Shown: piece after piece, positions 14,727 through 62,997 of the stretch
Numbering within the stretch: the stretch's first letter is position 1
Layout of the letters: each line of letters begins with the position of its first letter
Assembly (NCBI RefSeq): GCF_044741965.1
Contig: NZ_JBIUTQ010000007.1
Span: 1-64,000 of the forward strand
Reading direction: 5' to 3'
From: Streptosporangium sp. NPDC087985
GTDB taxonomy: Bacteria > Actinomycetota > Actinomycetes > Streptosporangiales > Streptosporangiaceae
DNA: 64,000 bases
Made by a program: the position numbers and the translations under genes
Notes under the pieces: model-generated
What the model saw: the letters and a program-made list of their open reading frames with translations, nothing else
The model's database searches: none
What the model was told of the DNA's origin: nothing

Positions 14727-14762
14727 GGCTGCCCCGCCCCGGAGAGCGGGAAGTGAGGGCGT

Positions 14763-17437: not shown

Positions 17438-17531
17438 CGCGTGCTCTCCTCTGCTCGTCGGTACGGCCGGAGTGGGGTCACGGCGGCCGTCTCGTCGCTG
17501 GACTATCCGCCCACGGCGGCAGATTTGACAA

Positions 17532-18167
17532 ATGGTGTTGCCAGGATGGCAAATAGGTGGGGTGAACGACGACGCTCCCGCCCTCGCCGGCGCTCTCGAC
17601 GATGTCATGGACGCCGTGGGCCCGCGCCTGAGAGTCCTGCGCCAGCAGCGCGGCGCGACCCTGGCGCAGCTCTCCGGGGCCACCGGGATCTCGGTCAGCA
17701 CCCTGTCCCGCCTGGAGTCCGGCCAGCGCAAGCCCACCCTGGAGCTTCTGCTCCTGCTGGCCCGAGTCCACCAGCTCCCCCTGGACGAGCTCGTCGGCGC
17801 GCCGGCGACCGGCGACCCGCGCGTCCACCAGCGCCCGATCATCCGCAACGGCACGACGTTCATCCCGCTGACCCGCCGGCCCGGCGGGCTCCAGGCCTAC
17901 AAGATGGTCATCCCGGCGCGCTGGCCCGCGTGCGGGCCGGAACAGCGGGTCCACGAGGGGTACGAGTGGATTTACGTCCTATCCGGGCGACTGAGCCTGT
18001 TGCTCGGCGAGAAAGAGATCGTCCTGACACACGGAGAGGTGGCGGAGTTCGACACCCACATCCCGCACGCGTTCAGCAACCCCTACCCGGAGCCCGCCGA
18101 AGTCCTCAGCCTGTTCGGACCCCAGGGCGAACGCCTGCACGTCCGCGCCCGCCCCTCCAACAGGTGA
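17532..18167 (+). CDS. XRE-family HTH regulator with C-terminal cupin domain
   Basis: LRVLRQQRGATLAQLSGATGISVSTLSRLESGQRKPTLELLLLLARV is an HTH_3 fold. The C-terminal YEWIYVLSGRLSLLLGEKEIVLTHGEVAEFDTHIPH is a cupin_2 fold. It is divergent from the oxidoreductase-MTase gene. Alternative starts at 17562 and 17607. Confidence 0.75.
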   Translation: MVLPGWQIGGVNDDAPALAGALDDVMDAVGPRLRVLRQQRGATLAQLSGATGISVSTLSRLESGQRKPTLELLLLLARVHQLPLDELVGAPATGDPRVHQRPIIRNGTTFIPLTRRPGGLQAYKMVIPARWPACGPEQRVHEGYEWIYVLSGRLSLLLGEKEIVLTHGEVAEFDTHIPHAFSNPYPEPAEVLSLFGPQGERLHVRARPSNR

Positions 18168-18234
18168 ACCGTCTCCCGCACCCGATGACCGCCACTCCTC
18201 CCCTTGGAGACTCCGCAGCCGGGCGAGGCCATGG

Positions 18235-21200: not shown

Positions 21201-23298
21201 CCAGTGTGGCGCGGGCCCGGTTGATCCCGCCGAGCACCTCGCCGACCCGCTCCAGGATCGCGGTCCGCGCGGTCGCGTCGGCGATGTCGAGCGTGCCGAC
21301 CACCTCGACCACGATCTCCAGGCCCTGCGTCTGCCCGGCCAGCCGCTCGCGGATCGGCTCGGCCTCGGCCACGGTCGTGATGGTCCCGGCGTCGGAGACC
21401 AGCCGTTCGACCTCCGCGTGGTAGCCGGCGAAGGCGTCCTCACCCCGCAGGAAGCCGGCCGCGCGCTGCGCGGTGGTGCCGAGCTCGGCGTCGAGCTCGG
21501 CGCGCAGCCCGTCGATCCGGCCGGTGTCCACGTAGCGCAGCTCACGCAGGGTCACCAGACGTCCCTGGGCCCGCCGCAGCTCGGCGAGATGGGTGATCCA
21601 TTCCTGCGCGGAGCGGGGGGCCTGCGCGTGTGCCAGCCGTACCAGGGAGGTGATCTCACCGGCGGCGGTCTCCAGCGCGGTCGCGGCCTGCTCGGTGAGC
21701 GACTGGACCTTCTCGAACTCCTCCAGCACCTGTTCGGCGGACGCCCGCACGTCGGCGAGCGGTCCTCGCAGCCCGTGCTCGCCCAGCCAGTGGTAGTGGT
21801 CGAAGGCCCGGGTGCAGGCCGAGATCAGCGCCTCGAAGACAGGGATCGACGGCGCCATCTCCTCGATCATCCGGGCCACCGAGAGGCAGTCGGAGATCCC
21901 GCGCACCAGTTCGGCGTTACCGATCCGCTCCAGCGGCCCGGTACCGGCGGGCTGGGCGGCGGCGTAGACGTCCGACGTGTACGGCGTCTGCCAGACCTGC
22001 ATCGGGTGGACCCGGGTGGGCTCGCCGGAGGTCGCCCTGAAGACGATCAGCGTGCCGTCGTCGAACAGCGAGTAGCCATGGCAGGAAAGAGGTGTGGACA
22101 CCTGTTTGCGGATCACGTTGTACGGCAGCAGCAGCGACCGGCCCTCGGCCCGGGCGTGGAAGACGTAGAGCACGTCCTCGCCGTTGGCCGAGCGGATGAC
22201 CCGCTCGAACTCCAGGCCGGAGACATCGGTGTCGAAGGTCTTGCTGACCCCGGTGGACAGGTAGTAGCCGCCGGGGAAGATGATCCCCTGGTCCTCGGGG
22301 AGGCGCTGGCAGGCCTGGCCGATGCCGTCGAGGCGGACCACGCCCTTGGTCCTGGTGTTGAAGACCAGGTGCCGCCATTCGGTCTCGTTGTAGGGCCGGA
22401 TACGCAGCAGGATCAGCGGGCCGATCCTGGCGTGGTACACATCGGCGTCGGCGAGGCTCTGCAGCGGTTCGGCGACCGGCTCGCGGTAGATGCCCTCGCC
22501 CGTCTCGGTGTTGTTCTCGATCTTGACGGTGAGGTCGCCGCCGACGGTCTCGACGAACACCTCGCCCTGGATCGAGATGTGCGGGTGGCGGCCGAGCACG
22601 TGGTCGTCGCGGGTCGTGGGGATCCACTCGAAGTCGTGCGAGGGCGGGAACGTGTGGTCACGCTCGCCCCGGTCGTCGATGTAGGTGAGTGTGCCGTCCA
22701 CCCCGACCTGCCAGCGCAGCACGCGGATGTCCTGCGGTCCCGTCTGGAAGACGGCCAGCATCTTGCCCTCGACCCGGCGGAGCTGGAGCAGCCGCGTCCC
22801 CCGGTAGTAGCGGTAGAGCTCGGCGAAGTCCCGCTCGAACTGCGGATGGCGGAACAGCGGCGCGGGGTCGAACCGGAAGGCGTCGCCGTCCAGACCACCC
22901 CCGGCACCCGCCGCTCCCCGCACGAAGGTGTGCATGGAGAAGACGTCCTCGACGGTCGTCTCGGGCTTCAACCCCATGAAAACGTTGTAGCCGAACAGGA
23001 TGAGCCCCTGACGGGGGTCGTGCCCGTCTCCCGTCCCCCCGCGTGGGCTCGCCGTCCCGCCGAGCGCCACGATGTCGCGGGGGACGCAGTTGTTCTCGGT
23101 GCGGATCCGCTCGGTACCGATCAGGCGGAGCTCGGCTCCGCCGAATACCTCGAGACGCTGGGTGTTGAGCGTCTCGGCCCGGCGGGCCAGCTCGCCCGCC
23201 CGCTCGGCGAGCCGGGCGCGGAGCACCTCGTAGGTGCCCGCGTCCAGCTCGGAGCGGTCACTGGGAGCATCGACGACCTCTGTCATGGGCGGCGTCAC
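18235..23298 (-). CDS. 1687-aa multidomain protein with C-terminal AAA_5 (MoxR/dynein-type) ATPase, co-operonic with flotillin
   Basis: One uninterrupted ORF. It has a beta-rich N-terminal ~450 aa and a long helical/coiled-coil middle. The C-terminus carries Walker A ISPPGYGKTTLM, Walker B VLLYLDDIQ and sensor-1 MAGNP. Its ATG overlaps the flotillin stop (ATGA, 23295-23298). Confidence 0.8.
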   Translation of the reverse strand: MTPPMTEVVDAPSDRSELDAGTYEVLRARLAERAGELARRAETLNTQRLEVFGGAELRLIGTERIRTENNCVPRDIVALGGTASPRGGTGDGHDPRQGLILFGYNVFMGLKPETTVEDVFSMHTFVRGAAGAGGGLDGDAFRFDPAPLFRHPQFERDFAELYRYYRGTRLLQLRRVEGKMLAVFQTGPQDIRVLRWQVGVDGTLTYIDDRGERDHTFPPSHDFEWIPTTRDDHVLGRHPHISIQGEVFVETVGGDLTVKIENNTETGEGIYREPVAEPLQSLADADVYHARIGPLILLRIRPYNETEWRHLVFNTRTKGVVRLDGIGQACQRLPEDQGIIFPGGYYLSTGVSKTFDTDVSGLEFERVIRSANGEDVLYVFHARAEGRSLLLPYNVIRKQVSTPLSCHGYSLFDDGTLIVFRATSGEPTRVHPMQVWQTPYTSDVYAAAQPAGTGPLERIGNAELVRGISDCLSVARMIEEMAPSIPVFEALISACTRAFDHYHWLGEHGLRGPLADVRASAEQVLEEFEKVQSLTEQAATALETAAGEITSLVRLAHAQAPRSAQEWITHLAELRRAQGRLVTLRELRYVDTGRIDGLRAELDAELGTTAQRAAGFLRGEDAFAGYHAEVERLVSDAGTITTVAEAEPIRERLAGQTQGLEIVVEVVGTLDIADATARTAILERVGEVLGGINRARATLDARRGELLASEGRAAFAAEFALLGQSITGALAMADTPERCDEQLGRLMLQMEGLESRFAEFDDFLAQLAAKREDVYEVFSARRQALLDERARRADRLADSATRILSSVRRRAAGLGSLDEVNTYFGSDPMVVKLHGVTGELRALGDQVRAEELEGRIKSARQEAGRALRDRLDLYTDGGETIRLGRHRFAVNTQAADLTLVPHGDRLAFAVTGTDYRSPVRDEAFAETQPFWNQSLVSETAEVYRGEHLAASILAAAEAGTLSVGGSAVTLDALRAAADGGSLLEIVRPVAQTRYDEGYERGVHDHDAAAILNALLRLHAGAGLLRYPPAARAAAQLFWTFGVDEAARGAWTTRVVSLARARALFGRVDAVDEIRGALGSAITTFMAALSGTADGTPAGNGRAARAPGDAGRPDGRDSEDVCTLAGEYLFEELAGEPSGFVTSAGARSLLERFDRALGTARQEFDDDLRALKDDLAGRHRLAEAWLGAFESPAELPEAVAVLLCEVTRHDSSVPLTTTVEDLLGTHPRISGRGLDLRLDEFLSRTRHFREHLVPAYRAYQRRRNDLVAAERTRLRLEEYRPKVMSAFVRNELLDEVYLPLIGDNLAKQIGAAGDAKRTDQMGMLLLISPPGYGKTTLMEYVASRLGLMLVKVNGPALGHLVTSVDPARAPDATARQEVEKISFALEMGNNVLLYLDDIQHTSPELLQKFISLCDGQRQMEGVWEGETRTYDLRGKRFAVCMAGNPYTESGRRFRIPDMLANRADVWNLGEVLSGKEELFALSYIDNALTSNPFLAPLSTRDRGDIRLLVRLAQGDPTVRADRLSHPYSAAELDEMLPVLRGLLRVQQVVLAGNRAYIASAAQSDASRTEPPFQLQGSYRNMNKLAARIVPVMNDAELEALIDDHYLGEARTLTSGAEANLLKLAELRGTMTAGQAARWAEVKAAYLREKALGGAEDDPVTRAVGAVGLLADRVSTAIEHAADRLSPEP

Positions 23299-25337
23299 TG
23301 CTTGCCGGAGTCGAGGGCGGCCGAGGTTTCGGCGGAGCCGGGCTCCCGCGTGGCGCCCAGCAGGTCACGTAGCCTGTCCGCGTCGGCTCCGCCCGAGTTG
23401 ATCAGTTTGACCAGCAGCGCGGAGAGGGAGAGGTTGCGCACGTCGGCGGTGTCGAGCGAGCCGAGCACCCTGGTCAGGTCGGCGGGCAGGCTCTGTGAGC
23501 CGTCCAGGTACGGCCCGGCCAGCGTCTGGGCGACGTCGGAGTGCTGCACGAAGCCGTCCACGATCTTGCCCATGCTGATCGAGCCCACCAGCCGGTCGAG
23601 GAAGACGCTGTCGCCGCCGACGATGTCGATGTTGGCCTTGGACAGGCCCGCGGACAGCACCTCGGCCTGCGCCTCGGCGACCTTGAGCTGGACGTTCACC
23701 CCGGCCAGGCGGATCTCCTTCTCCGCCTCCAGCCGCAGGCGGTACTCCTCGTGACCGCGGCTCGCGTCGTCCAGCGCGGCCATCGCCGCCGCCTTCTCGG
23801 TCAGGCCCTCGGCCTCGGCCTTGAGCCTCTCCCGCACCCCCATGGCAGAGGCCAGAGCCTTGGCCTGGTCGCCCTCGGCGGCGGCCAGCGCCTTCTCCCG
23901 CTCGATCAGGGCCTCGGCGCGGCCGATCTTCTCGATCGCTTCGGCGTCCCGCTCGCGCACCTGCACCTCGGCCAGGCCGGTCGCCGCCGTCTCGGCCTGG
24001 ACACCTTCGGCCAGACGGATCTTGGCGCGGGCGTCGAGCTCGGCGGCCTGCTGCCGCGACTCGGCCAGCACCAGTGTCTCGCGCGCCTGGTGCCGGGACG
24101 CCGCCTCGGACGCCTCGGCCGCCTTGATGTCCTTGACCAGGCTCTCCTGTGCCTCGGCCTCGGCCTGGATGATCAGGGCCTGGCGGGTCCGCTCGGCCTC
24201 CTCGACCACCCGCAGGCGCTTGATGCTCTCCTCCTCCTCGGCGACCGTCTTCTCCACCGCGATCCGCTCACGGATCACCTCGGCGATGGAGCGCTTCTCG
24301 CCTTCGAGCTCCTTGTCCTTGGAGATGCGGGACAGCTCGGTCTCGCGCTCGCGGGAGATGACCTCCAGCATGCGGTCCTTCTCGATCCGCTCGGACTCGA
24401 TGGCGATGACCCGCTCGCGGTTCTTCGCCGCCACGGCGATCTCGCGGGCCCGGTTCTCCTGCTGGATGCCGAGCTGCTCGTCGGTGTGCAGGCCGGCGGC
24501 CTGCGCCTTGAGCCGCTCCTCGGCCTGCACCTTGGCGATCTCCGCCTCCTCGCGGGCGCGCATGGTCTCGACCTCGCGCCGCTGCTTGATCTCCGCGTCG
24601 GCCTGGCGGCGCTCCAGTTCCAGGATGGCCTCCCGCGCGTCCACGTTCTGGCGGGTGATCTCCTTCTCCTCGTGCCGCTGGAACTCGTTGGTCCGCACGT
24701 GCTCGATGGCGGTCAGCTCGGTGATCTTCCTGATGCCCTGCGCGTCGAGGATGTTGTCCTTGTCGAGAGAGAGCAGCGAGGTCTGCTCCAGGTAGTCGAT
24801 GGCCGCGTCCTCAAGGCTGTAGCCGTTCAGGTCGGTGCCGATGACCTGGATGATCTGGTCGCGGAACTGGTCGCGCTGGGTGTAGAGGTCCACGAAGTCG
24901 AGCTGCTTGCCGACCGTCTTGAGCGCCTCGGAGAACTTGGCGTTGAACAGCTCCTGCAGCGTCTCCTTGTCGCTGGCCCGCGCGGTGCCGATGGCCTGGG
25001 CGACCTTGACCACGTCCTCGACGGTCTTGTTGACCCGGACGAAGAAGGTGATCCGGATGTCGGCCCGGATGTTGTCCCGGCAGATCAGGCCCTCGCGGCC
25101 GGTCCGTGCGATCTCGATGGTCTTCACCGAGATGTCCATGATCTCCGCCCGGTGGAACACGGGCAGCACGATCGCCCCGGTGAAGGTGACGTCCACCTTG
25201 TTGACCTTGGAGATGATCAGTGCCTTACCCTGCTCGACCTTGTTGAACAGGCGGCTGATCATGATAAGTAAACTGACGACGACGAGAAGGATGACGGCGA
25301 GAAGAATGCCCAGCCCGGTGGAGATGACGTCGTTCAT
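23295..25337 (-). CDS. flotillin-family SPFH/band-7 protein (FloT/YqiK-like)
   Basis: 680 aa. It has an N-terminal TM helix (GLGILLAVILLVVVSLLIMI), an SPFH domain, and a very long Glu/Ala/Arg-rich coiled coil (EAEIAKVQAEERLKAQAA...). Confidence 0.9.
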   Translation of the reverse strand: MNDVISTGLGILLAVILLVVVSLLIMISRLFNKVEQGKALIISKVNKVDVTFTGAIVLPVFHRAEIMDISVKTIEIARTGREGLICRDNIRADIRITFFVRVNKTVEDVVKVAQAIGTARASDKETLQELFNAKFSEALKTVGKQLDFVDLYTQRDQFRDQIIQVIGTDLNGYSLEDAAIDYLEQTSLLSLDKDNILDAQGIRKITELTAIEHVRTNEFQRHEEKEITRQNVDAREAILELERRQADAEIKQRREVETMRAREEAEIAKVQAEERLKAQAAGLHTDEQLGIQQENRAREIAVAAKNRERVIAIESERIEKDRMLEVISRERETELSRISKDKELEGEKRSIAEVIRERIAVEKTVAEEEESIKRLRVVEEAERTRQALIIQAEAEAQESLVKDIKAAEASEAASRHQARETLVLAESRQQAAELDARAKIRLAEGVQAETAATGLAEVQVRERDAEAIEKIGRAEALIEREKALAAAEGDQAKALASAMGVRERLKAEAEGLTEKAAAMAALDDASRGHEEYRLRLEAEKEIRLAGVNVQLKVAEAQAEVLSAGLSKANIDIVGGDSVFLDRLVGSISMGKIVDGFVQHSDVAQTLAGPYLDGSQSLPADLTRVLGSLDTADVRNLSLSALLVKLINSGGADADRLRDLLGATREPGSAETSAALDSGKQ

Positions 25338-45759: not shown

Positions 45760-46781
45760 GCTGGGCGGAGAAGGCGCTGCTTGAGGTTCTGGAGCGGTCC
45801 GGCACGGTCGAGGCGGATGCGGGAGGGCGATGGCCGCTGTATGCGGACCCCGTCTCCGGCGGCTGGACGACCACCGCCCGCGGATCATGGACCGGTGGTT
45901 TCTGGACGGGACTTCTGTGGCTGCGAGCGATCATGAGCGGTGATCCGGCCGACCGGGCCACCGCGATCAGCCGCACCGCATCGCTCGATCCGTGGATCTG
46001 GGCCGACACCGGAGCCCGAGGCCTCATCTTCTGGTACGGCACCGCGTTCGGCGTGGCAGAGGGGGACGCCCTGGCGGCGACGCTGCGAGAGCGCGCGGCC
46101 GGTGCCTGCCTGGACGCCTATGTCCCCGAGCTCGGGCTGGTGCCCTGGGGCGGCGCGTTCGGCGGTCCTCGGGAGCTGGCGCGCGTCGACGGCCTGCCCG
46201 GCCTCATGCAGCTCCTCCGTCTGGCGGGTCCTGACGGAGCCGTGGCCGCCCGGACCCAGCTGGACCTGCAGTTCGCTCTGACGGCAGGTGAGCGCCAGCT
46301 CCGCCCGGCCTGGCAAGCCCTGCCGGACGGCACCTGGGAACCCCACCTCGCCCTGCCGCCAGGCTGGAGCCGCACGGCGGCCTGGCTGTCGCTGGCGGTC
46401 GCCGACACCGGCGACGGCGATCGGCGGCGGGCACTGCTCGCACATCCCCAGGTGGCGGCCCGGTTCGCTGCACGCTCGCCCGCCGTCCCCTGCGCACGCC
46501 CCGGCGGGCCACCGGACACCTCGGCCGCTGCGATCGAGGCAGTCGCCGCTCTCAAACTGGCCGCGCGGGCCGATCAGCATGAAGCCGCCCGGCTGCGGGA
46601 CCGGGCCGCCGCCGTGCTCCGCGAGCTGGTCTCGGCACACCTGCGTGACGGCCGCCTGCTGGACGGCTGCTATGACCTGGACCACGGCATGGCCACCTGC
46701 CATGAGCTGGTGTGGGGCGACTTTTTCCTGGCTGTTGGCCTCGCGGTGCTCACCGGGGCGATCGATCCTTTCGCCTGCTGA
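45756..46781 (+). CDS. glycoside hydrolase family 88/105-like (unsaturated glucuronyl/rhamnogalacturonyl hydrolase-like) protein
   Basis: GGWTTTARGSWTGGFWTGLLWL matches the GH88/GH105 N-terminal signature. ATGA overlap with the MFS gene. Family assignment is tentative. Confidence 0.55.
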   Translation: MSWAEKALLEVLERSGTVEADAGGRWPLYADPVSGGWTTTARGSWTGGFWTGLLWLRAIMSGDPADRATAISRTASLDPWIWADTGARGLIFWYGTAFGVAEGDALAATLRERAAGACLDAYVPELGLVPWGGAFGGPRELARVDGLPGLMQLLRLAGPDGAVAARTQLDLQFALTAGERQLRPAWQALPDGTWEPHLALPPGWSRTAAWLSLAVADTGDGDRRRALLAHPQVAARFAARSPAVPCARPGGPPDTSAAAIEAVAALKLAARADQHEAARLRDRAAAVLRELVSAHLRDGRLLDGCYDLDHGMATCHELVWGDFFLAVGLAVLTGAIDPFAC

Positions 46782-47196
46782 ACGCTGTGGCCAGGGTGTG
46801 AGCGACGGCCTCGCCCAGACGGTCTGGCAAGCGCGGACAGTGCCAGGCGACGTGGTCGTCAGGCCGGATCAGGACGGCGCCGTCGGCCGCGATGCCGTAG
46901 ACGGCGGCGATGTCCGCGTCGCCCACGTGCACCAGCAGGGGCACACCTGCCGGCGCCGCCTCTTGCCAGGCCGCTCCGTCCGGTCCGGTCAGCAGGGTGA
47001 AGCCGGTGCCCACGAGGTCGAGCGTGGAGACCTCGCGTCTGTCATGGCGTGTCCTACTGAGCGCCCGGTCCTTGGGAAAGGCCGAGGCGGCGGAGTGCCG
47101 CTCGACCAGCAGAGAGGGCACGCCGAAGCGCGACAGCGCGATGGACGCGCACAGGCCGACCGGTCCGCCGCCGACGATGAGCACGGGGATGTCCAC
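46750..47196 (-). pseudogene. internally deleted FAD-dependent monooxygenase (148 aa instead of ~400)
   Basis: The N-terminal FAD motif MDIPVLIVGGGPVGLCASIALSRFGVPSLLVER is joined after ~50 aa to the extreme C-terminal motif ...GAVLIRPDDHVAWH. Confidence 0.55.
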
Positions 47197-52634: not shown

Positions 52635-53035
52635 TGCTTCCTACGGCGCCCGACCCTGCGCTCCTTTCAGAGGTGAGGCTTCAGCTACGGCGATCAACCT
52701 GAACGGCCTCGAACGCATTGCTTCAGCGTCAGTGAGCCCGCTGGGCGGTCCGGAAGCGAGCGGCTACGGTCTGCGGGCCGTACGGCGAGGCAGGCGTGGC
52801 GCGGAGGTGGGTGGGTGTTCCGGCCGGCGTATCAAAGGACCGCGACCGTCGCGCCCGCCAGGCCGGAGGCCTGAAACACCGGAGCGCAACCGAGACGGCC
52901 GGCCGGAACACCCGCCCACCGCAGCGCGAACACCGGCAAGCCAGAACACCCACCGCACGGACCAGAGGCCAAGCCGGAACACCCACCCACCGCAGCGCGC
53001 ACCAGGAACAGCCCCGAAAACGACTCAGACGCGGC
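52635..53035. repeat. copy 2 (inverted) of the ~350-bp dispersed repeat
   Basis: Reverse complement of 30036..30385, with an extra internal sub-unit (ccggaacacccacccaccgcagcgcgc). Confidence 0.8.
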
Positions 53036-53044
53036 CCGGGTCTC

Positions 53045-54268
53045 TCAGGGAGCGGAGGTGAAGACCAGAGAGGCGTTGTGGCCGCCGAATCCGAACGAGT
53101 TGGTCAGCGCCGTCGTCAGCCGGCCGCGCCGCGGCCGGCCGGTGACGATGTCGAGTTTGACCTCCGGGTCGAGGTCGTCCAGGTTGCGGGTGGCGGGGAT
53201 GACCCCGTCGCGGATCGCGAGGATCGTGGAGATCGCCCCCATTGCCCCGGCTGCGCCGCACAGGTGGCCGGTCATTGACTTGGTCGCGGTGACTGCCGGA
53301 TGTGTCCCGATCGCCGCGGTGATCGAGCGGGCCTCGGTCAGGTCCCCTGCCGGGGTGGAGGTGGCGTGGGCGTGCACGTGCTCGACATCGAGCGCGTCCA
53401 GGCCGGCGGAGGCCAGTGCCAGCCGCAGGGCGCGCACCTGTCCGTCCGTGTGGCCCCCGGTGATGTGATGGGCGTCGGACGTGATGCCCGCACCGGCCAG
53501 CGTCGCATGGACGCGGGCTCCACGGGCCGCGGCGAACCCGGCACGCTCCAGGACGACCAGAGCGGCTCCCTCGCCGAGGACGAACCCGTCCCGTGCCGTA
53601 TCGAAGGGCCGGGACGCCTCCTGGGGTGCGTCGTTGCGGGTGGAGAGCGCTCTGGCCTGGGCGAACCCGGCGAGGGTGAGCGGATGGACGCATGCCTCGG
53701 CGCCGCCCGCGATGACGACGTCGGCCCGGCCGAGACGGATGAGGTCCAGGCCCATCGCGATCGCCTCGGCTCCCGAGGCGCAGGCGCTCACCGGAGTGTG
53801 CGCGCCGCCGCGGGCGCCGAACTCGATGCTGACCACGGCGGCGGGCCCGTTGGGCATCAGCATGGGAACGGTGTACGGCGAGACCTTCCGCGCCCCGGAT
53901 GTCTCCAGGATGTCATTTTGGGTCAGGGTGCTCAGCACGCCGCCGACGCCGGTGCCGATGACCACCGCCAGACGCTCGGGTTCCGTCTCCGGGGCTCCGG
54001 CGTCGGCCCACGCCTCGTGTGCGGCGATCAAGGCGATCTGCTGGCAGCGGTCCAGCCGTCTGGCCTTCACCCGACCAAGCACCTCGGCGGGCTCCACCTG
54101 TAGCCGGCCCGCGATCCGCACCGGCAGGTCGGCCGCCCACTCTTCCTCGATGGGGCCGATCCCGGACCGCCCGGCCAGCAGGGCGGCCCATGTGGAGGCC
54201 ACATCACCGCCCAACGGTGTCGTGGCGCCCAACCCTGTGACTACCGCATCAGCTCTACCGACCGCCAT
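53045..54268 (-). CDS. fabF: beta-ketoacyl-[ACP] synthase II
   Basis: Active-site Cys PVSACASG, HATST and KSMTGHLCGAAG motifs, and the C-terminal NSFGFGGHNASLVF. Confidence 0.85.
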   Translation of the reverse strand: MAVGRADAVVTGLGATTPLGGDVASTWAALLAGRSGIGPIEEEWAADLPVRIAGRLQVEPAEVLGRVKARRLDRCQQIALIAAHEAWADAGAPETEPERLAVVIGTGVGGVLSTLTQNDILETSGARKVSPYTVPMLMPNGPAAVVSIEFGARGGAHTPVSACASGAEAIAMGLDLIRLGRADVVIAGGAEACVHPLTLAGFAQARALSTRNDAPQEASRPFDTARDGFVLGEGAALVVLERAGFAAARGARVHATLAGAGITSDAHHITGGHTDGQVRALRLALASAGLDALDVEHVHAHATSTPAGDLTEARSITAAIGTHPAVTATKSMTGHLCGAAGAMGAISTILAIRDGVIPATRNLDDLDPEVKLDIVTGRPRRGRLTTALTNSFGFGGHNASLVFTSAP

Positions 54269-54439: not shown

Positions 54440-54545
54440 ATCAGGTGCCGGCCGGCTGGAACATCCACCCACCGCAGCGCGCACGGCGAAAGCCGCGCAC
54501 CCGGGAAACACCCAAGCAAGAGGGACGGAGCTCAGACGCGGGCCC
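54440..54545. repeat. partial third copy of the dispersed repeat (terminal ~100 bp)
   Basis: ccggccggctggaacatccacccaccgcagcgcgcacggcgaaagccgcgcaccc matches the end of copies 1 and 2, in the same orientation as copy 2. Confidence 0.6.
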
Positions 54546-55137
54546 AGTCGTGACGCTCCAGGAAGGCGCGGCCACCGGTGGCGTACTCGGCGAAGGCCTC
54601 CTGGACCGTCCCGAGGTCGGGGACGTGCGTGCGGAACATCAGGTTCTGGGCGCTGTCCTTGTACTCCAGCTCGTAGCCTGTGATCTCCGGAGACACCTGG
54701 ACGAAGTGCTCACCGAAGACGACCAGCGCGGTGAACGGGTTCTGCGGTGACAGCGTGGCCAGCGCATCGGCGACGAGCCGCAGATCCGGATCGACCACGA
54801 TCATCCCGTCGCCCGTGTGCATCTGCATGCCGGAGTAGACGCCCAGGGGTGCCAGGTTGTGCACCAGCCCCCGCTGCGGGTCGTAGCAGACCAGGTCGTA
54901 CTCGCGGGCCAGGGCGAAGACCTCGCCCGACACCTCGTCGGCCCGCTCCGGCTCCACGGCGACCAGCGCGTACGCCGGAAAGAGCTGCGCGATCCCGGGC
55001 AGCCGCCCGGCGAACGCCGCCACTCCGGGATACGGCTCGGCAGCGGGCTCGCCGCGGCGGAGCGCCTGGAAGACGTTCTCCGCCTGCCCCTTGGTGATCG
55101 GTTCGGACTCGTGCCAGACGGCCAGTTCTACGCTCAC
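54532..55137 (-). CDS. hypothetical protein
   Basis: 201-aa ORF with coding-like composition. GTG start. No recognisable motif. Confidence 0.45.
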   Translation of the reverse strand: MSVELAVWHESEPITKGQAENVFQALRRGEPAAEPYPGVAAFAGRLPGIAQLFPAYALVAVEPERADEVSGEVFALAREYDLVCYDPQRGLVHNLAPLGVYSGMQMHTGDGMIVVDPDLRLVADALATLSPQNPFTALVVFGEHFVQVSPEITGYELEYKDSAQNLMFRTHVPDLGTVQEAFAEYATGGRAFLERHDWARV

Positions 55138-55359
55138 GGTTCCATCGTCCTACAGGCGGGTCCGCAGGCCGAACGGTTGCCATCCGGGAGCGGTGTCAGG
55201 CTTGGGGCCTCTCTGCGGAGCGGACCCGGGACGGCTCAACGGTGCGGAACGGACAGCGGCCGGCGTCGACGAGGTCTCCCCTCGTCAGGAACTTCTTGAA
55301 TCCGCCTATCTCTTGCGCCCTCCGCTCGTGAGAACATCCGGCTTACCCTCGCAGCCGGG

Positions 55360-55560
55360 TCAGACGTCGAAATCCCCGTTCTTCACGGCCTTGACGAAGG
55401 TGTTCCACTCCTCGTGGGTGAACGACAGAACGGGACCGGTACCACCGTCTTTGCTGTCCCGTACACCGACCCAGCCGTCCTGAGAAGCGATCTCAACGCA
55501 CTGGCCGTTGTTGCACTTGGACCGCCAGATTGCTCCATGGAACTCCGAGCCGCTGTCCAT
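55360..55560 (-). CDS. DUF397 protein
   Basis: WRSKCNNGQCVEIASQDGWVGVRDSKDGGTGPVLSFTHEEWNTFVKAVKNGDFD. Confidence 0.7.
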   Translation of the reverse strand: MDSGSEFHGAIWRSKCNNGQCVEIASQDGWVGVRDSKDGGTGPVLSFTHEEWNTFVKAVKNGDFDV

Positions 55561-55731
55561 GCGTTTCCTCCCGGAAAGATTGACAACTCTTCTATGGAAG
55601 AACGTCGCGCCGTGAGAATTATAGTATATTTTTACGTCACCGACTTGTGGTCGTTTGCTGTGGTTGCCGGGGGGCGAGTGTCTGATGTGTCATCGGATAT
55701 GAATTCTGTGGCCACCCGTCGCAAGAGAAAC

Positions 55732-55759
55732 GGCGTCGGCGGGATCTTCCGCCGACGCC
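55732..55759. terminator. hairpin ggcgtcggcgg-gatcttc-cgccgacgcc downstream of the second DUF397 gene, within an AT-rich spacer
   Basis: Read directly. It lies 40 nt past the minus-strand stop at 55800. Confidence 0.45.
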
Positions 55760-55799
55760 GCCCCCATGGTCTCGTGCCTCCTGTATGGGAAGCCAGCTT

Positions 55800-56012
55800 C
55801 TACAGGTCGAACTTTCCGTCCTTGATGCTGTATATGAAAGATCGGAATTCCGCTACGGTAAATTCAAGGATCGGCCCACTCTGATCCTTGCTGTCACGCA
55901 TGCCCACGTCTCCATTGGGAAGTCTGGTGATTTCCACGCAGGAGCCGTTGTTACACCGGCTTGAGACCTGCCATTCCAGAGTGGAAGGCTCGGCGAGTTT
56001 GGAAGACGTCAT
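55800..56012 (-). CDS. DUF397 protein (second tandem copy)
   Basis: WQVSSRCNNGSCVEITRLPNGDVGMRDSKDQSGPILEFTVAEFRSFIYSIKDGKFD. The ATG lies 5 nt after GGAGAG. Confidence 0.7.
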   Translation of the reverse strand: MTSSKLAEPSTLEWQVSSRCNNGSCVEITRLPNGDVGMRDSKDQSGPILEFTVAEFRSFIYSIKDGKFDL

Positions 56013-56070
56013 CGTCTCTCCATGAAAATTCGTTGGGATTGGTATGTTGTGTGATGACGGAGCGCGCCGG

Positions 56071-56928
56071 TCAGGCAGCGAATCTGTCGTATGCCCTCGC
56101 GATGTGTGCACCTGATTCTTGTGGGCTCAGGGCCACTGCGCGAAGATGGTTGAGCGTTTCTCTGAAACGTTCAATTTCTCTGGCTTTCTCCAGGTAGAAG
56201 CTACCCATGAGGGTGTCCAGGTACACCGTGTCCCCGATCGTGGGATCGGAAAACTCCAATAAAACGAAAGCGCTGTCGAACCCCATGTGGGCGCCGATGA
56301 CGAAGGGGATCACCTGAATGGTCACGTGGGGGAGTTCGGAGGCTTTCTTGAGGTGCTCCAACTGTTTCCTCATGACATCGGCCCCGCCCACATGGCGATG
56401 CAGCACGGATTCGTCGAGAAGAACCCAGTATTTAGGCGGGAGGGGGCCGTGCAGGCGTTCCTGGCGTCTCAGCCGGTAGGTGACCCGCTCTTCCAGCACG
56501 TCCGGATCTATCCTGGGCAGGTATCCCCTGATGACCGCGCGAGCATAGTCCTCGGTCTGGAGGAGTCCCGGGACGGTTGTCGTCTCGTATTCGGAGATCG
56601 ACGTGGCATCGATCTCCAGACCGAGAAACGGGCGGAAATCGACGTCTTCCGTCTCCTGCCACCACACCTGTTGTTTGGCCTCTCGGGCCAAGGACATCAG
56701 GGCGTCGATCTGCGCCTGGTCGGTCATCCCGTAGAAGAGGCAGAGGTCGCGCACGTCCCGGGGGAGCGCGCCGCGCTGGGCGGTCTCGATCCGACTGATC
56801 TTCGCCGGCGAACACTCGAGCTGTTCGGCGGCCTCCCTGATGCTCTTCCCGGCCTGTTCACGGAGCTCGCGCAGACGGCTGGCGAGTTGTCGGCGGCGCA
56901 GAGTGGGGTTGTTACCGGCCATCGGCAC
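56071..56928 (-). CDS. XRE-family HTH regulator with DUF5753 (Scr1-type), second module
   Basis: LASRLRELREQAGKSIREAAEQLECSPAKISRIE is the HTH. The C-terminus is homologous to 32243..33103. Confidence 0.8.
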   Translation of the reverse strand: MPMAGNNPTLRRRQLASRLRELREQAGKSIREAAEQLECSPAKISRIETAQRGALPRDVRDLCLFYGMTDQAQIDALMSLAREAKQQVWWQETEDVDFRPFLGLEIDATSISEYETTTVPGLLQTEDYARAVIRGYLPRIDPDVLEERVTYRLRRQERLHGPLPPKYWVLLDESVLHRHVGGADVMRKQLEHLKKASELPHVTIQVIPFVIGAHMGFDSAFVLLEFSDPTIGDTVYLDTLMGSFYLEKAREIERFRETLNHLRAVALSPQESGAHIARAYDRFAA

Positions 56929-57156
56929 TCACCTCTTTTTCCCCGATGGTGCAGGCGGCTGCCGCCTCCTCCAGGAGGTCTTCCCAGGTCGCAGCGATGG
57001 TAACAGTCAAACGGCATTCTCGTCTGGCAATCTCACAAGGTAACCGCCAAGGGTATATTCATATGGCAATTGCCAATGGCAGTCGTCGATGGCGCAGACT
57101 CGGGTAAAGGGAAAGCACGGCCCCGTAGGGGCGAACCTTCAAGGGGGTGATGGTCC

Positions 57157-57462
57157 TTGAAGCACAACATCGAGATACGTGACGATCGCTGGATCGGCGT
57201 AGGAAGCCTACTGATCATTTGCCTGCGGGCGCTGGACGCCCGGATTTTCGCGGAACTGGACGCGTTCATGTGGGTGCAGGAATGGGAGACCGATCGCGGC
57301 CGGCTGTTCCGGCGCACCTACCGTGATCCCAGGTTCGGCACCCTGCTGGAATGCGGCCTGTGCCACGGCGAGGACACGACCGGCAGGCGGGAGCCGTGCT
57401 CGCTCTGCGACGGCACCGGGCGGATCGACTGGCTCAGGTCGGAAGTGCACGATGAGCCGTAA
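57157..57462 (+). CDS. small hypothetical protein with C-terminal DnaJ-type CxxCxGxG zinc-finger pair
   Basis: 101 aa ending CGLCHGEDTTG...CSLCDGTG. Confidence 0.4.
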   Translation: MKHNIEIRDDRWIGVGSLLIICLRALDARIFAELDAFMWVQEWETDRGRLFRRTYRDPRFGTLLECGLCHGEDTTGRREPCSLCDGTGRIDWLRSEVHDEP

Positions 57463-57639
57463 GCCGGGCGCGCGGCGATCTTCCCGCCGGCGGCGTATGT
57501 CCGTGGTTGTTGATGTCATCCGTGTCGCGTCGGCACCGGGACCGATCGAGGAGTCAATGTCATCAGATGGGACCAGTTCACAGTGACAGGTGGGGGAACG
57601 TGCGCATGAGAAGGAGAACACAGGGCATGTTTCCACATC

Positions 57640-57893
57640 GCTGAAGGGCGGTGCGATGATCGAGGTCTGGCCGGGTTATCCCTCACCTCTCAACGACGAC
57701 CCGTTCCCGTTGCTGTTCAACGCCCACCACGACGTCATCAAATTCACGGTTCCGAAGGACGAAGGACTACGGCGACATGTGGCTGACGGAGGTCGATACG
57801 GCGATGCCGATCACAGTGAACACCCGGATCTGCCGGGCAGGGGAGGACGTACCGGTGGCCGGCAGGTCAGTGAGGGTGGTGCGGCGTGTCTGA
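57640..57893 (+). pseudogene. 3' remnant of treX/glgX (glycogen debranching enzyme), frameshifted, N-terminal ~600 aa absent
   Basis: DDPFPLLFNAHHDVIKFTVPKDEG, then after a +1 shift, YGDMWLTEVDTAMPITVNTRICRAGEDVPVAGRSVRVVRRV-stop. This resembles the conserved GlgX C-terminus (LLxNAHHEP..FTLP ... ARSxxVL). Its stop overlaps the treY GTG start. Confidence 0.55.
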
Positions 57894-60069
57894 GCCGTTC
57901 ACGGTGCCGACCTCGACCTACCGGATCCAGCTGACCCCCGACTTCGGGTTCGCCGAGGTGGCCGCGCTCGCTCCCTACCTGCGGGATCTGGGGGTCAGCC
58001 ACGTCTATCTGTCGCCCATCCTGCAGGCCTTCCCCGAGTCACGGCACGGCTACGACGTGACCGACCACTCCCGGATCCGGGCGGAGTTCGGCGGGATCGA
58101 GGGTCTGCGGACGCTGGCGGCGACGCTGGCCGCGCACGGGCTGGGAACGGTCGTGGACATCGTGCCCAACCACATGACGATCCCGGTGCCCGAGTCGGGC
58201 AACGCGCCGCTCTGGTCGGTGCTCAAGGACGGGCAGGCGTCGCCGTACGCGCCGTGGTTCGACATCGACTGGGCCGGCGGCAAGGTGAACATGCCGGTGA
58301 TCGGCGATGCCACCGAGCCGGTGGTGGACGGCGACGTGCTGCGCTACCACGACCACGAGTTCCCCTTCCCCGACACCCACTACCGGCTGGTCGACTGGCG
58401 CCAGGGACCCGGCTACCGGCGTTTCTTCGACGTGTCCTCGCTGATCGGGCTGCGCGTGGAGGAGCCGGAGGTCTTCGGCGCCACCCACGAGGTCATCCTG
58501 AAGCTGGTCGCCGAGGGGGCCGTCCACGGCCTGCGGGTGGATCATCCCGACGGGCTGGCCGAGCCCCGCGGTTACCTGTCCCGGCTCCGTGAGGCCTCGG
58601 GTGTGTGGACCGTGGCGGAGAAGATCCTGATCGGCTCGGAGCGGCTGCCCGCGGACTGGGACTGCGACGGCACCACCGGCTACGACGTGCTCAACCGGAT
58701 CACCAGACTGTTCGTGGATCCCGAGGGGAGCGGACGGCTGGTGGAGCTGTTCGTCACCCACACCGGCATGCCGCACGACTACGCCACCGTGGTCCGGCGG
58801 TCCAAGCGGGAGGTCATCGACCTGTTCTTCACCGCAGAGGTCGACCGGCTGCACGCCGTTGTCGGCTCCGACCGCGAGACCCTGGTGGAACTGCTCGTCG
58901 CGATGCCGGTCTACCGGGCGTACGCGGTGCCGGGAGAGCAGGTGCCCGAGGTCGCGGCCTCGATCGTCGAGACGGCCGGGCAGGTCGCCGCCACCCGGCT
59001 GCCCGAGGGTGCCCCGGTCGCGGAGGTCGTCGGCAGGGTGCTGCGCGGTCCGGCCGACGCGGTCATCCGCTTCCAGCAGATCTGCGGACCGGTGATGGCC
59101 AAGGGGGTGGAGGACACCGCGCTCTACCGGTGGTACCCGCTGGCGTGCCTGAACGAGGTGGGCGGGGAACCGGACCACTTCGCCGGGACCGTCGGCGAGT
59201 TCCACATGTTCGCTCAGGAGATGTCACCGACCACGATGACGACGCTGTCCACGCACGACACCAAACGCTCCGAGGACGTGCGCGCCCGGCTGGCCGTGCT
59301 GTCGGAGCTGCCCGGGGAGTGGGCGGCGGCGGTCGGGGAGTGGGCGGCGAAGGTCTCCTTCGACCCGGCGCTGGACTACCTGGCCTGGCAGAACCTGATG
59401 GCCGCGTGGCCGATCAGCCAGGACAGGTTCTTCGACTACCTGTTCAAGGCGGCCCGCGAGGCCAAGACCTCGATCTCCTGGGCCGCTCCCGACCCCGACT
59501 ACGAGGCGGGCCTCCGCAGCTTCGTCACCCGGGCGATCGCCGAGTGCGGCGCCTCGATCGCGGAGTTCGCCGCCGGGATCGAGCCGTACGCCCGGTCCAA
59601 CTCGCTGGGCCAGAAGCTCGTCCAGCTCATGCTGCCGGGTGTGCCTGACCTCTACTGGGGCAACGAGATCACTGACTTCTCCCTGGTGGACCCGGACAAC
59701 CGCCGCCCGGTGGACTTCCCGCTCCGCCGCCAGATGCTCGCCGGGGAGGGTGGGACGCCCTGGGACGAGGCCAAGCTGCTGGTCACCACCCGGGCGCTGA
59801 ACCTGCGGCGGCGGCTGGATCCGGCTGCGCCGTACGTCCCGCTGGACGGCGGTGAGCACGTGGTCGCCTTCGCACGCGGGGAGCGGGCGGTGGCGGTGGC
59901 CACCCGGCTGCCGGTAGGCCTGGCGCGGCGCGGCGGCTGGGGAGACGAGACGGTCATGCTGCCGCATGGCACGTGGCGCGACCTGCTGACCGGTGCCGAG
60001 CACACCGGCCGTATCCCGCTGGCCCACCTGCTGTCGGCCTACCCTGTCGCGCTTCTGGAAGGGGAGTAG
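57886..60069 (+). CDS. treY: malto-oligosyltrehalose synthase
   Basis: 727 aa. YRIQLTPDFGFAEVAALAPYLRDLGVSHVYLSPI...GLRVDHPDGL are the GH13 TreY signatures. Confidence 0.9.
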   Translation: MSEPFTVPTSTYRIQLTPDFGFAEVAALAPYLRDLGVSHVYLSPILQAFPESRHGYDVTDHSRIRAEFGGIEGLRTLAATLAAHGLGTVVDIVPNHMTIPVPESGNAPLWSVLKDGQASPYAPWFDIDWAGGKVNMPVIGDATEPVVDGDVLRYHDHEFPFPDTHYRLVDWRQGPGYRRFFDVSSLIGLRVEEPEVFGATHEVILKLVAEGAVHGLRVDHPDGLAEPRGYLSRLREASGVWTVAEKILIGSERLPADWDCDGTTGYDVLNRITRLFVDPEGSGRLVELFVTHTGMPHDYATVVRRSKREVIDLFFTAEVDRLHAVVGSDRETLVELLVAMPVYRAYAVPGEQVPEVAASIVETAGQVAATRLPEGAPVAEVVGRVLRGPADAVIRFQQICGPVMAKGVEDTALYRWYPLACLNEVGGEPDHFAGTVGEFHMFAQEMSPTTMTTLSTHDTKRSEDVRARLAVLSELPGEWAAAVGEWAAKVSFDPALDYLAWQNLMAAWPISQDRFFDYLFKAAREAKTSISWAAPDPDYEAGLRSFVTRAIAECGASIAEFAAGIEPYARSNSLGQKLVQLMLPGVPDLYWGNEITDFSLVDPDNRRPVDFPLRRQMLAGEGGTPWDEAKLLVTTRALNLRRRLDPAAPYVPLDGGEHVVAFARGERAVAVATRLPVGLARRGGWGDETVMLPHGTWRDLLTGAEHTGRIPLAHLLSAYPVALLEGE

Positions 60070-60072: not shown

Positions 60073-61812
60073 GTGTTCGAAGTCTGGGCGCCGCAGGCGA
60101 CCGCGGTCGACGTGGAGATCGGCGAGATCCGCTATCCGATGGACGCCAGGGTGGGCGGCTGGTGGTCGGTGGAGGTGCCGGGGGCCGGTCACGGGACCGA
60201 CTACCGGTTCCGGCTGGACGGCGGCGAACCGCTGCCGGATCCCCGGACCCGGTGGCAGCCCGAGGGGATCTTCGGGCCGAGCCGGGTCTACGAGCACGAC
60301 CGGTACGTGTGGGGTGACGAGCTGTGGCGCGGGCGCGGCCTGCCCGGGGCGGTGATCTACGAGCTGCACGTCGGCGCCTTCACTCCCTCAGGGACCTTCG
60401 AGGCGGCGATCGAGAAGCTGGAGCACCTCACCACGCTCGGTGTCGACTTCGTCGAGGTCATGCCGGTGCCGCCGGTGCCGGGAGAGCGTAACTGGGGCTA
60501 CGACGGGGTCGATCTGTGGGCCGTCACCGACAACTACGGCGGTCCCGACGGGTTCAAACGCTTTGTGGACGCCTGCCACCGGCAGGGCCTCGGTGTGATC
60601 CTGGACGTCGTCTACAACCATCTCGGCCCGTCCGGGAACTTTCTGGCCCCGTTCGGCCCCTATTTCCACCCCAGTGCCTCCTCCTTCTGGGGCCAGGCGG
60701 TCAACCTGGACGGTCCCGGCTCCGACGAGGTGCGCCGCTACTTCGTCGGCAACGCGCTGCAGTGGCTGCGCGACTACCATGTCGACGGCCTGCGGCTGGA
60801 CGCCGTGCACGCGCTGCACGACAGGCGGGCCGTGCACCTGCTGGAGGAGATGGCCGTCGAGGTGGAGGCGCTGTCGGCGGCCGTGGGCAGGCCCCTGACG
60901 CTCATCGCCGAGTCCGATCTCAACGACCCCCGGCTGGTGACCCCGCGCGAGGCCGGTGGATACGGCCTGGCCGCGGCCTGGAACGACGACGTCCACCATG
61001 CCCTGCACGTGGCGGTGACCGGGGAACGGCACGGCTACTACGACGACTTCGCCGGGGCCCTGCCCAAGGTCCTCACCTCGGCCTACTTCCACGACGGCAG
61101 CTTCTCGACCTTCAGGGGGCGCTCGCACGGCCGCCCGGCCCGCCACGTGCCCGGCTACCGCTCCGTCTGCTCCGCGCAGAACCACGACCAGATCGGCAAC
61201 CGGGCCGAGGGCGACCGGATGGCGCCGGAGGCGCTGCGACTGGCCGCCGGGCTGCTGCTGACCTCGCCGTTCACCCCGATGCTGTTCATGGGCGAGGAGT
61301 GGGGTGCGCGCACGCCGTTCCTGTTCTTCACCGACCACGTCGAGCCGCGGCTCCGTGACGGCGAGGCGGACCGGCGGCGGCGGGAGTTCGTCGGCTTCGG
61401 TTACGACGACTGGGCCGACAAGGCGCCGGACCCGGGGGAGGAGCTGACGTTCCTGCGCTCCAAGCTCGACTGGAGCGAGCTCGACGACGCCGCCCACCGG
61501 GCCCATCTCGACTGGTATCGGGCTCTGATCGCGCTGCGCCGCGCGCATCCGGACCTGTCGGACCCGAGGCTGGAGCGGGTCCGGGTCGAGCATGGTGAGA
61601 CCTGGCTGGTCGTCCACCGGGGAGCGTTCCGGGTCGCCGCGAATCTCGGCGCGGTCCCGCTCACGGTACGGCTGGCGCCCGGCCAGGTCCTGCTCGCCTC
61701 CGACCCGGGCGTCCGCTTCGGTGATGACCCCGTCCCCTCGGGTTTCGGTGAGGGTCTGATCCTGCCCGCCCGCTCCCTGGCGGTGATCCGGCCAGGCGGG
61801 CACGGGCTCTGA
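60073..61812 (+). CDS. treZ: malto-oligosyltrehalose trehalohydrolase
   Basis: 579 aa. FEVWAP...YRFRLDGG is the N-terminal E-set. The catalytic region GLRLDAVHAL...AESDLNDP carries the TreZ signatures. Confidence 0.9.
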   Translation: MFEVWAPQATAVDVEIGEIRYPMDARVGGWWSVEVPGAGHGTDYRFRLDGGEPLPDPRTRWQPEGIFGPSRVYEHDRYVWGDELWRGRGLPGAVIYELHVGAFTPSGTFEAAIEKLEHLTTLGVDFVEVMPVPPVPGERNWGYDGVDLWAVTDNYGGPDGFKRFVDACHRQGLGVILDVVYNHLGPSGNFLAPFGPYFHPSASSFWGQAVNLDGPGSDEVRRYFVGNALQWLRDYHVDGLRLDAVHALHDRRAVHLLEEMAVEVEALSAAVGRPLTLIAESDLNDPRLVTPREAGGYGLAAAWNDDVHHALHVAVTGERHGYYDDFAGALPKVLTSAYFHDGSFSTFRGRSHGRPARHVPGYRSVCSAQNHDQIGNRAEGDRMAPEALRLAAGLLLTSPFTPMLFMGEEWGARTPFLFFTDHVEPRLRDGEADRRRREFVGFGYDDWADKAPDPGEELTFLRSKLDWSELDDAAHRAHLDWYRALIALRRAHPDLSDPRLERVRVEHGETWLVVHRGAFRVAANLGAVPLTVRLAPGQVLLASDPGVRFGDDPVPSGFGEGLILPARSLAVIRPGGHGL

Positions 61813-61841: not shown

Positions 61842-62819
61842 TCACACGGGGACGTGGTTCCGGAGACGGAGCCCATCAGGACAGGGCCGGAGATATGTCT
61901 GGTCCCGGATGTACCCCGCGGCCTCGCCCCGGGCGTGATGCCGGAGCAGGGTCACCGGCACACTGAGCGCCACCAGGCCGGCCTGGTAGGAGGCGATGAC
62001 CTCCGCCAGGTCGGTCCGGTGGACCGGGTCGAGCCGGCCGCTCATCATGCCCACGCAGTGCTGGAGCACGTTGACGTGACGGCCGATGCTCGTCTTCCCG
62101 GCGAGGGCCGTACTGAAGACGTACGTGTACTCGGCGGCCAGTTCCGCCCGGTCGAGCGTGCCCGCGCGGGCCACGATCCGCCCGGCCTCGCGGTAGGCGG
62201 CGGGATCGTGGGAGAGCAGCTGCATCTTGTGGCGGGAGTGGAAGGCGACCAGGTCACGCGGGTGCCAGTCGCCCCCCAGCAGAGCCCGCAGCCGGGCGTG
62301 CGCGAAGATCCGCTCCACGAAGTTCTCGCGGAGCAGCGGGTCGTTCAGCCGTCCCTCGTCCTCCACCGGCAGGAGCGGATGGGCGTCGATGATCCGGGCC
62401 GCGAACACCCCCCGGTTTTTGCGGTCGACGGCCACGTCCCCGGCGTAGAGGGGGACGCCGTGCACGCCGCAGCTGGGACTTCTGGCCTTGAAGACGTAGC
62501 CGTCCACGTCGAGGGTGCGTGCCCGTTCGCCGGCCAGCATCGCAATCCTGCCGGTGAGATCCGCCCGGGTCCCGCTGGTGACCAGGCGCGGGCCCCCGGG
62601 CGAGCGCTCGAGCCGGAGGCTCTCACGCGGAGTGCCGAGGCCGATCTCCATCTCCGGGCAGATCGGCACCCAGTCGACGTAGAGGTCCAGCTCGTTGCTG
62701 ATGAACCTGTCGCGGCTGTGGCCGCCGTTGAAACGCACCATCTGGCCCGTGAGGCAGCTGGACACCGCGACCCGGGGTCTGACCTGGCCGTCCGTGTCAT
62801 CGTCCATGTGGTGATTCAT
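61842..62819 (-). CDS. DUF523 + DUF1722 (YbgA-like) protein
   Basis: VAVSSCLTGQMVRFNGGH...SPSCGV matches DUF523. The C-terminal helical DUF1722-like part follows. Several in-frame ATGs lie in a 24-nt tandem duplication at the 5' end, so the start is ambiguous (62807, 62819 or 62843). Confidence 0.7.
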   Translation of the reverse strand: MNHHMDDDTDGQVRPRVAVSSCLTGQMVRFNGGHSRDRFISNELDLYVDWVPICPEMEIGLGTPRESLRLERSPGGPRLVTSGTRADLTGRIAMLAGERARTLDVDGYVFKARSPSCGVHGVPLYAGDVAVDRKNRGVFAARIIDAHPLLPVEDEGRLNDPLLRENFVERIFAHARLRALLGGDWHPRDLVAFHSRHKMQLLSHDPAAYREAGRIVARAGTLDRAELAAEYTYVFSTALAGKTSIGRHVNVLQHCVGMMSGRLDPVHRTDLAEVIASYQAGLVALSVPVTLLRHHARGEAAGYIRDQTYLRPCPDGLRLRNHVPV

Positions 62820-62997
62820 GCCACGGACGCTCTCGTTCATGCCATGGACGCCCTCATTCAAGCCGCGATCGGAGTGAGGAGGTCCGACAGGCGGCGCAGG
62901 TCGGCCACGTCGTAGTGGCGCTATCTGTCCGAGCTGGACGCTGTGCCGCCGACGGTGCCGGGCGGAACGATTCGTCCTCTCCGCGCGTCGCAAAGGT

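Follow-up and report, generated by a model that had tools for sequence, protein, structure and literature searches.

The treX (glgX) gene of Streptosporangium sp. NPDC087985 is very probably a pseudogene, produced by an internal 1875-bp deletion and a 7-bp duplication, and it lies directly before an intact and constrained treY-treZ pair. All 10 close relatives have an intact orthologue at this position, and purifying selection on what remains of the gene has been lost, the two marks by which a pseudogene is recognized. The analysis covers a window of 64,000 nucleotides from one contig of this strain. The operon encodes a pathway in which TreX removes glucan branches, TreY isomerises the linkage at the reducing end, and trehalose is set free by TreZ (PMC11046441; PMC5042117). 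TreX/GlgX strips the short branches left by GlgP, after which TreY and TreZ turn linear α-1,4 chains into trehalose (PMC11046441). Set beside the treX-treY-treZ (glgX-treY-treZ) operons of Mycobacterium tuberculosis, Streptomyces venezuelae, and Sulfolobus, the TreY and TreZ of the window are equivalog-level members, whereas treX is reduced to 12 + 64 codons, is frameshifted, and is without CBM48 and GH13.

In 10 of 10 close relatives treX (GlgX) has 701 codons and ends in GTGTCTGA, overlapping the treY start. The stop-to-stop ORF that ends at the treY start spans ~705-911 codons in every one of them, the coding sequence itself being 701. The remnant in NPDC087985 comprises 76 codons (12 + 64; ~57656-57893, + strand). 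Codons 1-12, located at 57656-57691, read MIEVWPGYPSPL, compared with MIEIWPGDPYPL in the relatives. They are followed by codons 638-701 and the TGA stop (57692-57893, with the stop at 57891-57893), which represent the C-terminal tail of GlgX as traced by tblastn and by alignment A2, where the tail shows 87% mean column identity with seven relatives. The two pieces are joined in frame. Missing between them are 1875 bp, or 625 codons (codons 13-637 of 701), which encoded CBM48 and the GH13 catalytic domain in its entirety; in the S. canum locus (L083) the absent stretch is 7939-9813. Base-by-base comparison with the loci of S. canum and Streptosporangium sp. NBC_01639 (L081), both of which were also compared by their gene calls, together with blastn coordinates, places the deletion junction at 57690-57694. 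The 5′ arm ends in CCTCTC (CTC at 57689-57691), and the 3′ arm starts with AAC GACGAC, codon 638 being AAC in the remnant and ACC in the relatives. The dinucleotide TC is found at both ancestral breakpoints and constitutes a 2-bp microhomology, the only repeat at the junction; a repeat search found no terminal repeats there.

Within the tail, GAAGGAC occurs twice in tandem (57754-57760 and 57761-57767). This 7-bp duplication, at 57754-57767, is absent from seven of seven aligned relatives and results in a net +1 frameshift in the remnant tail. The tail reads CCGAAGGACGAAGGACTAC where all seven aligned relatives read CCGAAGGACTAC, and on three-frame translation MIEVWPGYPSPLNDDPFPLLFNAHHDVIKFTVPKDEG and KDYGDMWLTEVDTAMPITVNTRICRAGEDVPVAGRSVRVVRRV* appear in successive frames. 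Starting from the ATG at 57656, the present ORF specifies 92 aa, and its stop codon falls at 57932-57934, 46 nt inside treY, and the ORF list contains a 114-codon ORF, 57590-57934, that runs into treY. GTGTCTGA is retained at 57886-57893, identical to that in seven relatives, with the remnant TGA overlapping the treY GTG (57886), and a Shine-Dalgarno-like GAGGG for treY is kept in the native treX 3′ end. The order, strand, and stop/start overlap of treX and treY are as in the intact operons of the relatives. An earlier note on this DNA had described a frameshifted GlgX remnant that ends at the treY GTG, and both features are borne out, by the 7-bp duplication with its net +1 shift and by the TGA/GTG overlap within GTGTCTGA. 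Its statement that only the last ~80 codons survive is correct in part: the last 64 codons are kept, and so are the first 12 codons and ~136 bp of upstream sequence.

The assignment of 57640-57893 to GlgX, also proposed in that note, was substantiated by tblastn searches of the window with the full-length TreX proteins of relatives, which gave similarity far beyond chance. The C-terminal piece was matched in two frames, frame 2 at 57689-57766 and frame 3 at 57747-57854, and its combined E values ranged from 1e-20 to 1e-22 (about 1e-21 with TreX from six relatives, 3e-22 to 8e-22 with the TreX proteins of NBC_01639 and S. canum). Unexpectedly, these searches also revealed an N-terminal match: the N-terminal piece and in-frame leader of TreX from six relatives align to 57602-57691 (E = 6e-8). 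The S. canum TreX scores 1005 bits against TIGR02100 (cut-off 640.9) and contains CBM48 and alpha-amylase domains. Measured against such a full-length GlgX, the remnant has no ~700-aa protein and no CBM48 or GH13 domain, and its reading frame is interrupted. Indeed, the frame-repaired 76-aa remnant matched no model in Pfam or NCBIfam; because it is too short for these libraries, its homology is established by tblastn and by DNA alignment with relatives. With neither a CBM48 nor a GH13 domain left, the debranching enzyme encoded at the treX locus itself has been lost, as had been predicted. Within the 64-kb window tblastn found no other GlgX, and the sole extra match was a weak, expected cross-match to TreZ.

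A scan with TreY, taking one genome per species, yielded 80 loci, the closest of which come from Streptosporangium, Planobispora, and Planomonospora. Of the 75 actinobacterial loci with enough upstream sequence, 72 carry a full-length treX next to treY, on its upstream side and on the same strand; in the other three (L038, L045, and L072) no treX was found within the fetched flank. Contiguity of treX-treY-treZ is thus the norm in actinobacteria, as the earlier reading of the locus had assumed, and it is seen in 10 of 10 close relatives. Across Streptosporangiaceae genera, TreX identity is 84-99%, compared with 64-89% for TreY, and by sequence comparison TreX ranks as the most conserved gene of the operon in the family. 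Among the members listed in the four clusters checked, the full-length named Streptosporangium TreX proteins all have 701 aa, and none of the members listed was, by name, a GlgX of NPDC087985. A search of 50%-identity GlgX representatives returned entries from Streptomyces, Nocardioides, or metagenomes, with the paralogue groups not separated. A second GlgX, at 48-50% identity, is present in several Amycolatopsis and Aeromicrobium loci, and S. venezuelae has two glgX genes (PMC5042117).

The remnant has drifted, whereas treY and treZ are intact and constrained. After frame repair, 59 of its 76 positions are invariant in 10 relatives, and seven of these 59 are changed in the window. The corresponding changes at invariant sites number 6 of 468 in TreY and 6 of 391 in TreZ, together 12 of 859 (Fisher p = 8.7e-5, odds ratio 9.5 for the remnant against TreY and TreZ combined). 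Pairwise dN for the remnant is 0.089 against NBC_01639 and 0.082 against S. canum; the same treX segment compared between those two relatives gives 0.029, and their whole treX gives 0.018 with an omega of 0.09. The dN of the remnant is therefore raised three- to fourfold, a rate estimate that is noisy because the segment is short (76 codons). The treY gene (57886-60069, + strand) encodes a 727-aa malto-oligosyltrehalose synthase that scores 737.8 bits against TIGR02401 (cut-off 498.65), and treZ (60073-61812, + strand) encodes a 579-aa malto-oligosyltrehalose trehalohydrolase that scores 702.4 bits against TIGR02402 (cut-off 538.8) and matches profile positions 3-544 of 545. Both proteins are full length and above the NCBIfam equivalog cut-offs, in agreement with the earlier description of a treX pseudogene directly before an intact treY-treZ. 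TreY matches an NCBI entry from Streptosporangium sp. NPDC087985 with 100% identity; among other species the closest are S. canum and Streptosporangium sp. NBC_01639, to whose TreY it is 89% identical over its full length. The dN/dS values, 0.30-0.33 for treY and 0.22 for treZ, equal those between the two relatives. Collectively, the excess of private changes and the raised dN identify the remnant as an old, drifting pseudogene, and these sequence comparisons indicate that the loss of treX is real and not recent.

The region upstream of the remnant is native. In blastn, window positions 57520-57683 align with positions 7767-7930 of the NBC_01639 locus, in its mscL-treX intergenic region (78% identity, E = 2e-30), and a nine-sequence alignment (A3) supports 57520-57655 (+ strand) as the native treX upstream region and leader. 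Directly before the treX ATG (57625-57658; alignment A3), the hairpin CACCGC-TGAAGG-GCGGTG encloses the Shine-Dalgarno sequence. This hairpin is invariant in eight relatives from three genera and reads CATCGC...GCGGTG in the window, where one C-to-T change keeps a G.U pair. When 55000-58200 was scanned with Rfam, the only matches were to snoRNAs at chance level, so the hairpin corresponds to no known RNA family; it may control translation of the operon. A simple promoter/terminator scan of 57000-58100, not built for actinomycete promoters, found nothing near the remnant. Because the upstream region, the leader, the start codon, and the 3′ end with GAGGG and GTGTCTGA have all been spared, treY-treZ are most likely still transcribed, and we infer that their expression most likely proceeds from the former treX promoter.

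Upstream of this leader lies a variable module of lower GC content (0.55-0.65) between mscL and treX (55360-57462), delimited by Pfam matches, composition, and blastn. It contains a DUF397 gene (55360-55560, − strand), a second DUF397 gene (55800-56012, − strand), an XRE regulator with HTH_31 and DUF5753 (56071-56928, − strand), and a gene for a 101-aa Cys-rich CxxC...CxxCxGxG protein (57157-57462, + strand). In having an HTH_31+DUF5753 regulator that adjoins two DUF397 genes, the module resembles the actinomycete gene sets that pair a WhiJ-like XRE(DUF5753) regulator with BldB-like DUF397 genes; here the set is a neighbor of the treX deletion and not part of it. Window positions 55266-57472 correspond to 131-2335 of the S. 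canum locus with 87% nucleotide identity. The gene order in S. canum is mscL, DUF397, DUF397, XRE/DUF5753, the 101-aa Cys-rich protein, a SARP (1071 aa), an I36-like and a MarR-like gene, treX (701 aa), treY, and treZ. S. carneum and strain NPDC051022 likewise have the DUF397, XRE, and Cys-rich genes, then a SARP of ~1150 aa and an intact treX. In NBC_01639 the module is absent and mscL directly faces treX; relative to that genome the module spans ~55370-57519, and its right end stops 136 bp or more short of the treX ATG. A repeat search detected no terminal repeats on either side of the XRE/DUF397 module. Judged by synteny, the module is a variable insert in the mscL-treX intergenic region.

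The earlier note had taken this arrangement differently: an accessory segment made up of the Cys-rich gene, the XRE/DUF397 module, and AT-rich spacers would have replaced the upstream part of treX, with the remnant marking the right edge of an island. The module is indeed variable, being absent from NBC_01639, its GC content is lower, and a large variable region lies further left, at ~30-53 kb. However, the module and the deletion are separated by native treX sequence, the leader and codons 1-12, which contradicts the claim that everything upstream was replaced, and both ends of the deletion fall inside the treX reading frame, not at a breakpoint on the right edge of an accessory region. The syntenic comparison also goes against a replacement of treX by the module, since S. 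canum, S. carneum, and others carry the same module before an intact 701-codon treX; coexisting with intact treX in several species, the module is not the cause of the truncation. Its right boundary relative to NBC_01639, near 57519, is well separated from the treX ATG, and two core genes, KAS (53045-54268) and the gene for a 201-aa protein (54532-55137), keep the variable block at ~30-53 kb apart from the remnant. Replacement by an island is, on this evidence, hardly credible. Very improbable, too, is an assembly or sequencing artefact, in which the genome would hold an intact treX and the contig would have collapsed 1.9 kb and acquired a 7-bp error. The source is a draft assembly, the contig being 277,830 bp long; against such an error, no collapse-prone repeats are present at the junction beyond the 2-bp microhomology, base-calling errors are not typically 7-bp tandem duplications, and an artefactual deletion in a functional gene would not explain why private amino-acid changes at invariant sites are ~ninefold in excess.

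The remnant might instead serve as a short upstream ORF whose translation, irrespective of the peptide made, feeds ribosomes to treY or regulates treY-treZ. The in-frame deletion, the preserved ATG, the conserved Shine-Dalgarno hairpin, the native GTGTCTGA overlap, and the purifying selection that persists on treY and treZ would all suit such a function. The duplication, however, moves the stop to 46 nt within treY and so breaks the native stop/start overlap, and treY has its own SD-like GAGGG. An in-frame outcome is in any case a one-in-three chance, and any internal deletion would by chance leave the start and 3′ end in place. We consider a functional upstream ORF improbable. As for programmed frameshifting, it was considered and ruled out, the shift being a lineage-private 7-bp duplication in a gene without catalytic domains.

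The remnant is best described as ordinary gene decay, a further case of a well-known kind of pseudogene, since what removed treX was a deletion inside the gene rather than the arrival of an island. The ancestral gene, 701 codons long and first in a treX-treY-treZ operon, lost codons 13-637; with only 2 bp of microhomology at the junction, illegitimate recombination or end-joining, rather than homologous recombination, is suggested. The 7-bp duplication, which shifts the frame of the remaining C-terminal codons, suggests replication slippage. The treY-treZ pair, most likely still transcribed from the old treX promoter, would continue to make trehalose from linear α-1,4-glucans. Branched glucan would need a debranching enzyme from another locus; failing that, its use would stop at limit dextrins. 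Ordinary pseudogenes formed by microhomology deletion and slippage likewise show a 2-bp junction, a tandem-duplication frameshift, and faster amino-acid change afterward; compared with them, the only distinctive point here is an in-frame deletion that spares both ends of the gene. The locus would accordingly be annotated as a treX pseudogene (internal deletion plus 7-bp duplication) and not as an island boundary.

The absence of a linked treX is shared with the actinobacterial treY-treZ loci that have no adjacent treX (L038, L045, and L072). In Corynebacterium glutamicum, too, glgX is encoded away from treYZ. Together with those 3 of 75 loci, this organism provides precedent for treYZ without a linked debranching gene. 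In contrast to these unlinked treYZ loci, the loss here is recent enough to have left a recognizable scar and took place within a genus that otherwise has an intact, very conserved treX. Despite the strong conservation of TreX across Streptosporangiaceae, this lineage evidently lost treX some time ago and kept treY and treZ under selection. This pattern suggests either that another, redundant debranching enzyme is encoded elsewhere in the genome or that the linear glucan from which trehalose is made is supplied without TreX. It is rather unlikely that NPDC087985 has no other debranching enzyme while treY-treZ remain under normal purifying selection, which would make it a natural knock-out. Were this so, the strain would show that the TreY/TreZ route works without a cognate TreX, with linear glucan for TreY/TreZ coming, for example, from GlgP, MalQ, or turnover in the GlgE pathway.

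Compared with every relative examined, other genes near the remnant have also been lost or reduced. An mscL remnant with ~15 alignable N-terminal codons, in which the start ATG has become ATA, lies at 55159-55310 (− strand; alignment A4). The NBC_01639 gene call for mscL has 142 aa, and a region of the same size aligns in S. carneum and NPDC051022 (L025/L028); ~370 bp of it are missing in the window, and a tblastn search of the window with MscL gave no match. Where relatives carry a SARP-type regulator (BTAD+AAA_16, 1071-1152 aa; positions 2447-7619 of the S. canum locus and 4000-7458 of L025), the window has by synteny a spacer of ~57 bp (57463-57519). A low-stringency search of 57430-57660 found no remnant of the SARP gene, and no remnant of the S. 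canum I36 inhibitor-like and MarR-like genes was detected in the spacer.

At 62858-62959, downstream of treZ, a block of 3.3-5 kb is missing, with ~50 bp of the 3′ end of an ECF sigma factor gene left behind (62858-62910). According to the gene calls of NBC_01639 and S. canum, the block carries genes for an ECF sigma factor, a photolyase, and a MerR-type regulator, which is B12-binding in S. canum; S. canum has TipAS and DUF2268 genes in addition. S. carneum, NPDC051022, and NPDC002721 have unmatched DNA of similar size at this site. A light-response and photorepair module thus appears to have been lost in this lineage. Further left, a 148-aa ORF (46750-47196, − strand) represents an FAD-dependent aromatic-ring monooxygenase of which only ~45 residues at the start and ~100 at the end are left. 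It aligns with PDB chain 9qm3_A (540 aa) over residues 8-47 and 429-525 of that chain, and in Pfam positions 2-42 of 349 of FAD_binding_3 are followed directly by Rng_hyd_C. This ORF constitutes a second internal in-frame deletion, with an anatomy like that of the treX remnant. Taken together, the losses affecting mscL, the SARP block, the sigma factor/photolyase block, and the monooxygenase suggest that the neighborhood is a deletion-prone, variable region of the chromosome, with nothing specific to trehalose.

The variable DNA further left is considerable. The interval from the RF3/GFO genes (27.4-30.0 kb) to KAS (53.0 kb) spans ~23 kb in the window (30000-53000) but only 2.8 kb in NBC_01639, where it contains an epimerase, a TetR regulator, and a small ORF. 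The 23-kb segment includes genes for PepSY_TM, DyP peroxidase, PCuAC, acyl-CoA dehydrogenase, CoA-transferase, AMP-ligase, and ECF sigma factor proteins and for MFS and ABC-3 transporters; a second XRE(DUF5753)/DUF397 set, with HATPase_c_2, is located at 31.2-33.4 kb. Another stretch, 11946-25337 (− strand), encodes an N6 DNA methylase (748 aa), a fused FAD oxidoreductase-methyltransferase (708 aa), a 1687-aa DUF3686+DUF7902+AAA protein, and a 680-aa protein without a Pfam match, and looks like a defence or DNA-modification island. A ~290-bp intergenic repeat at 52641-52931 is also present in NBC_01639, twice and in opposite orientation (L081 positions 1736-1987 and 5970-6259), and short fragments of it flank KAS in the window (52973-53002 and 54449-54492); the repeat could represent a small mobile or REP-like element. 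Finally, at the 5′ end of a 2-thiouracil-desulfurase/DUF1722 gene (− strand), positions 62795-62855 form an insert that is specific to the window among the aligned relatives and that holds an imperfect short repeat of CATGCC..GGACGC.. units. The 540-aa ORF call for this gene is probably an over-extension of a ~320-aa gene.
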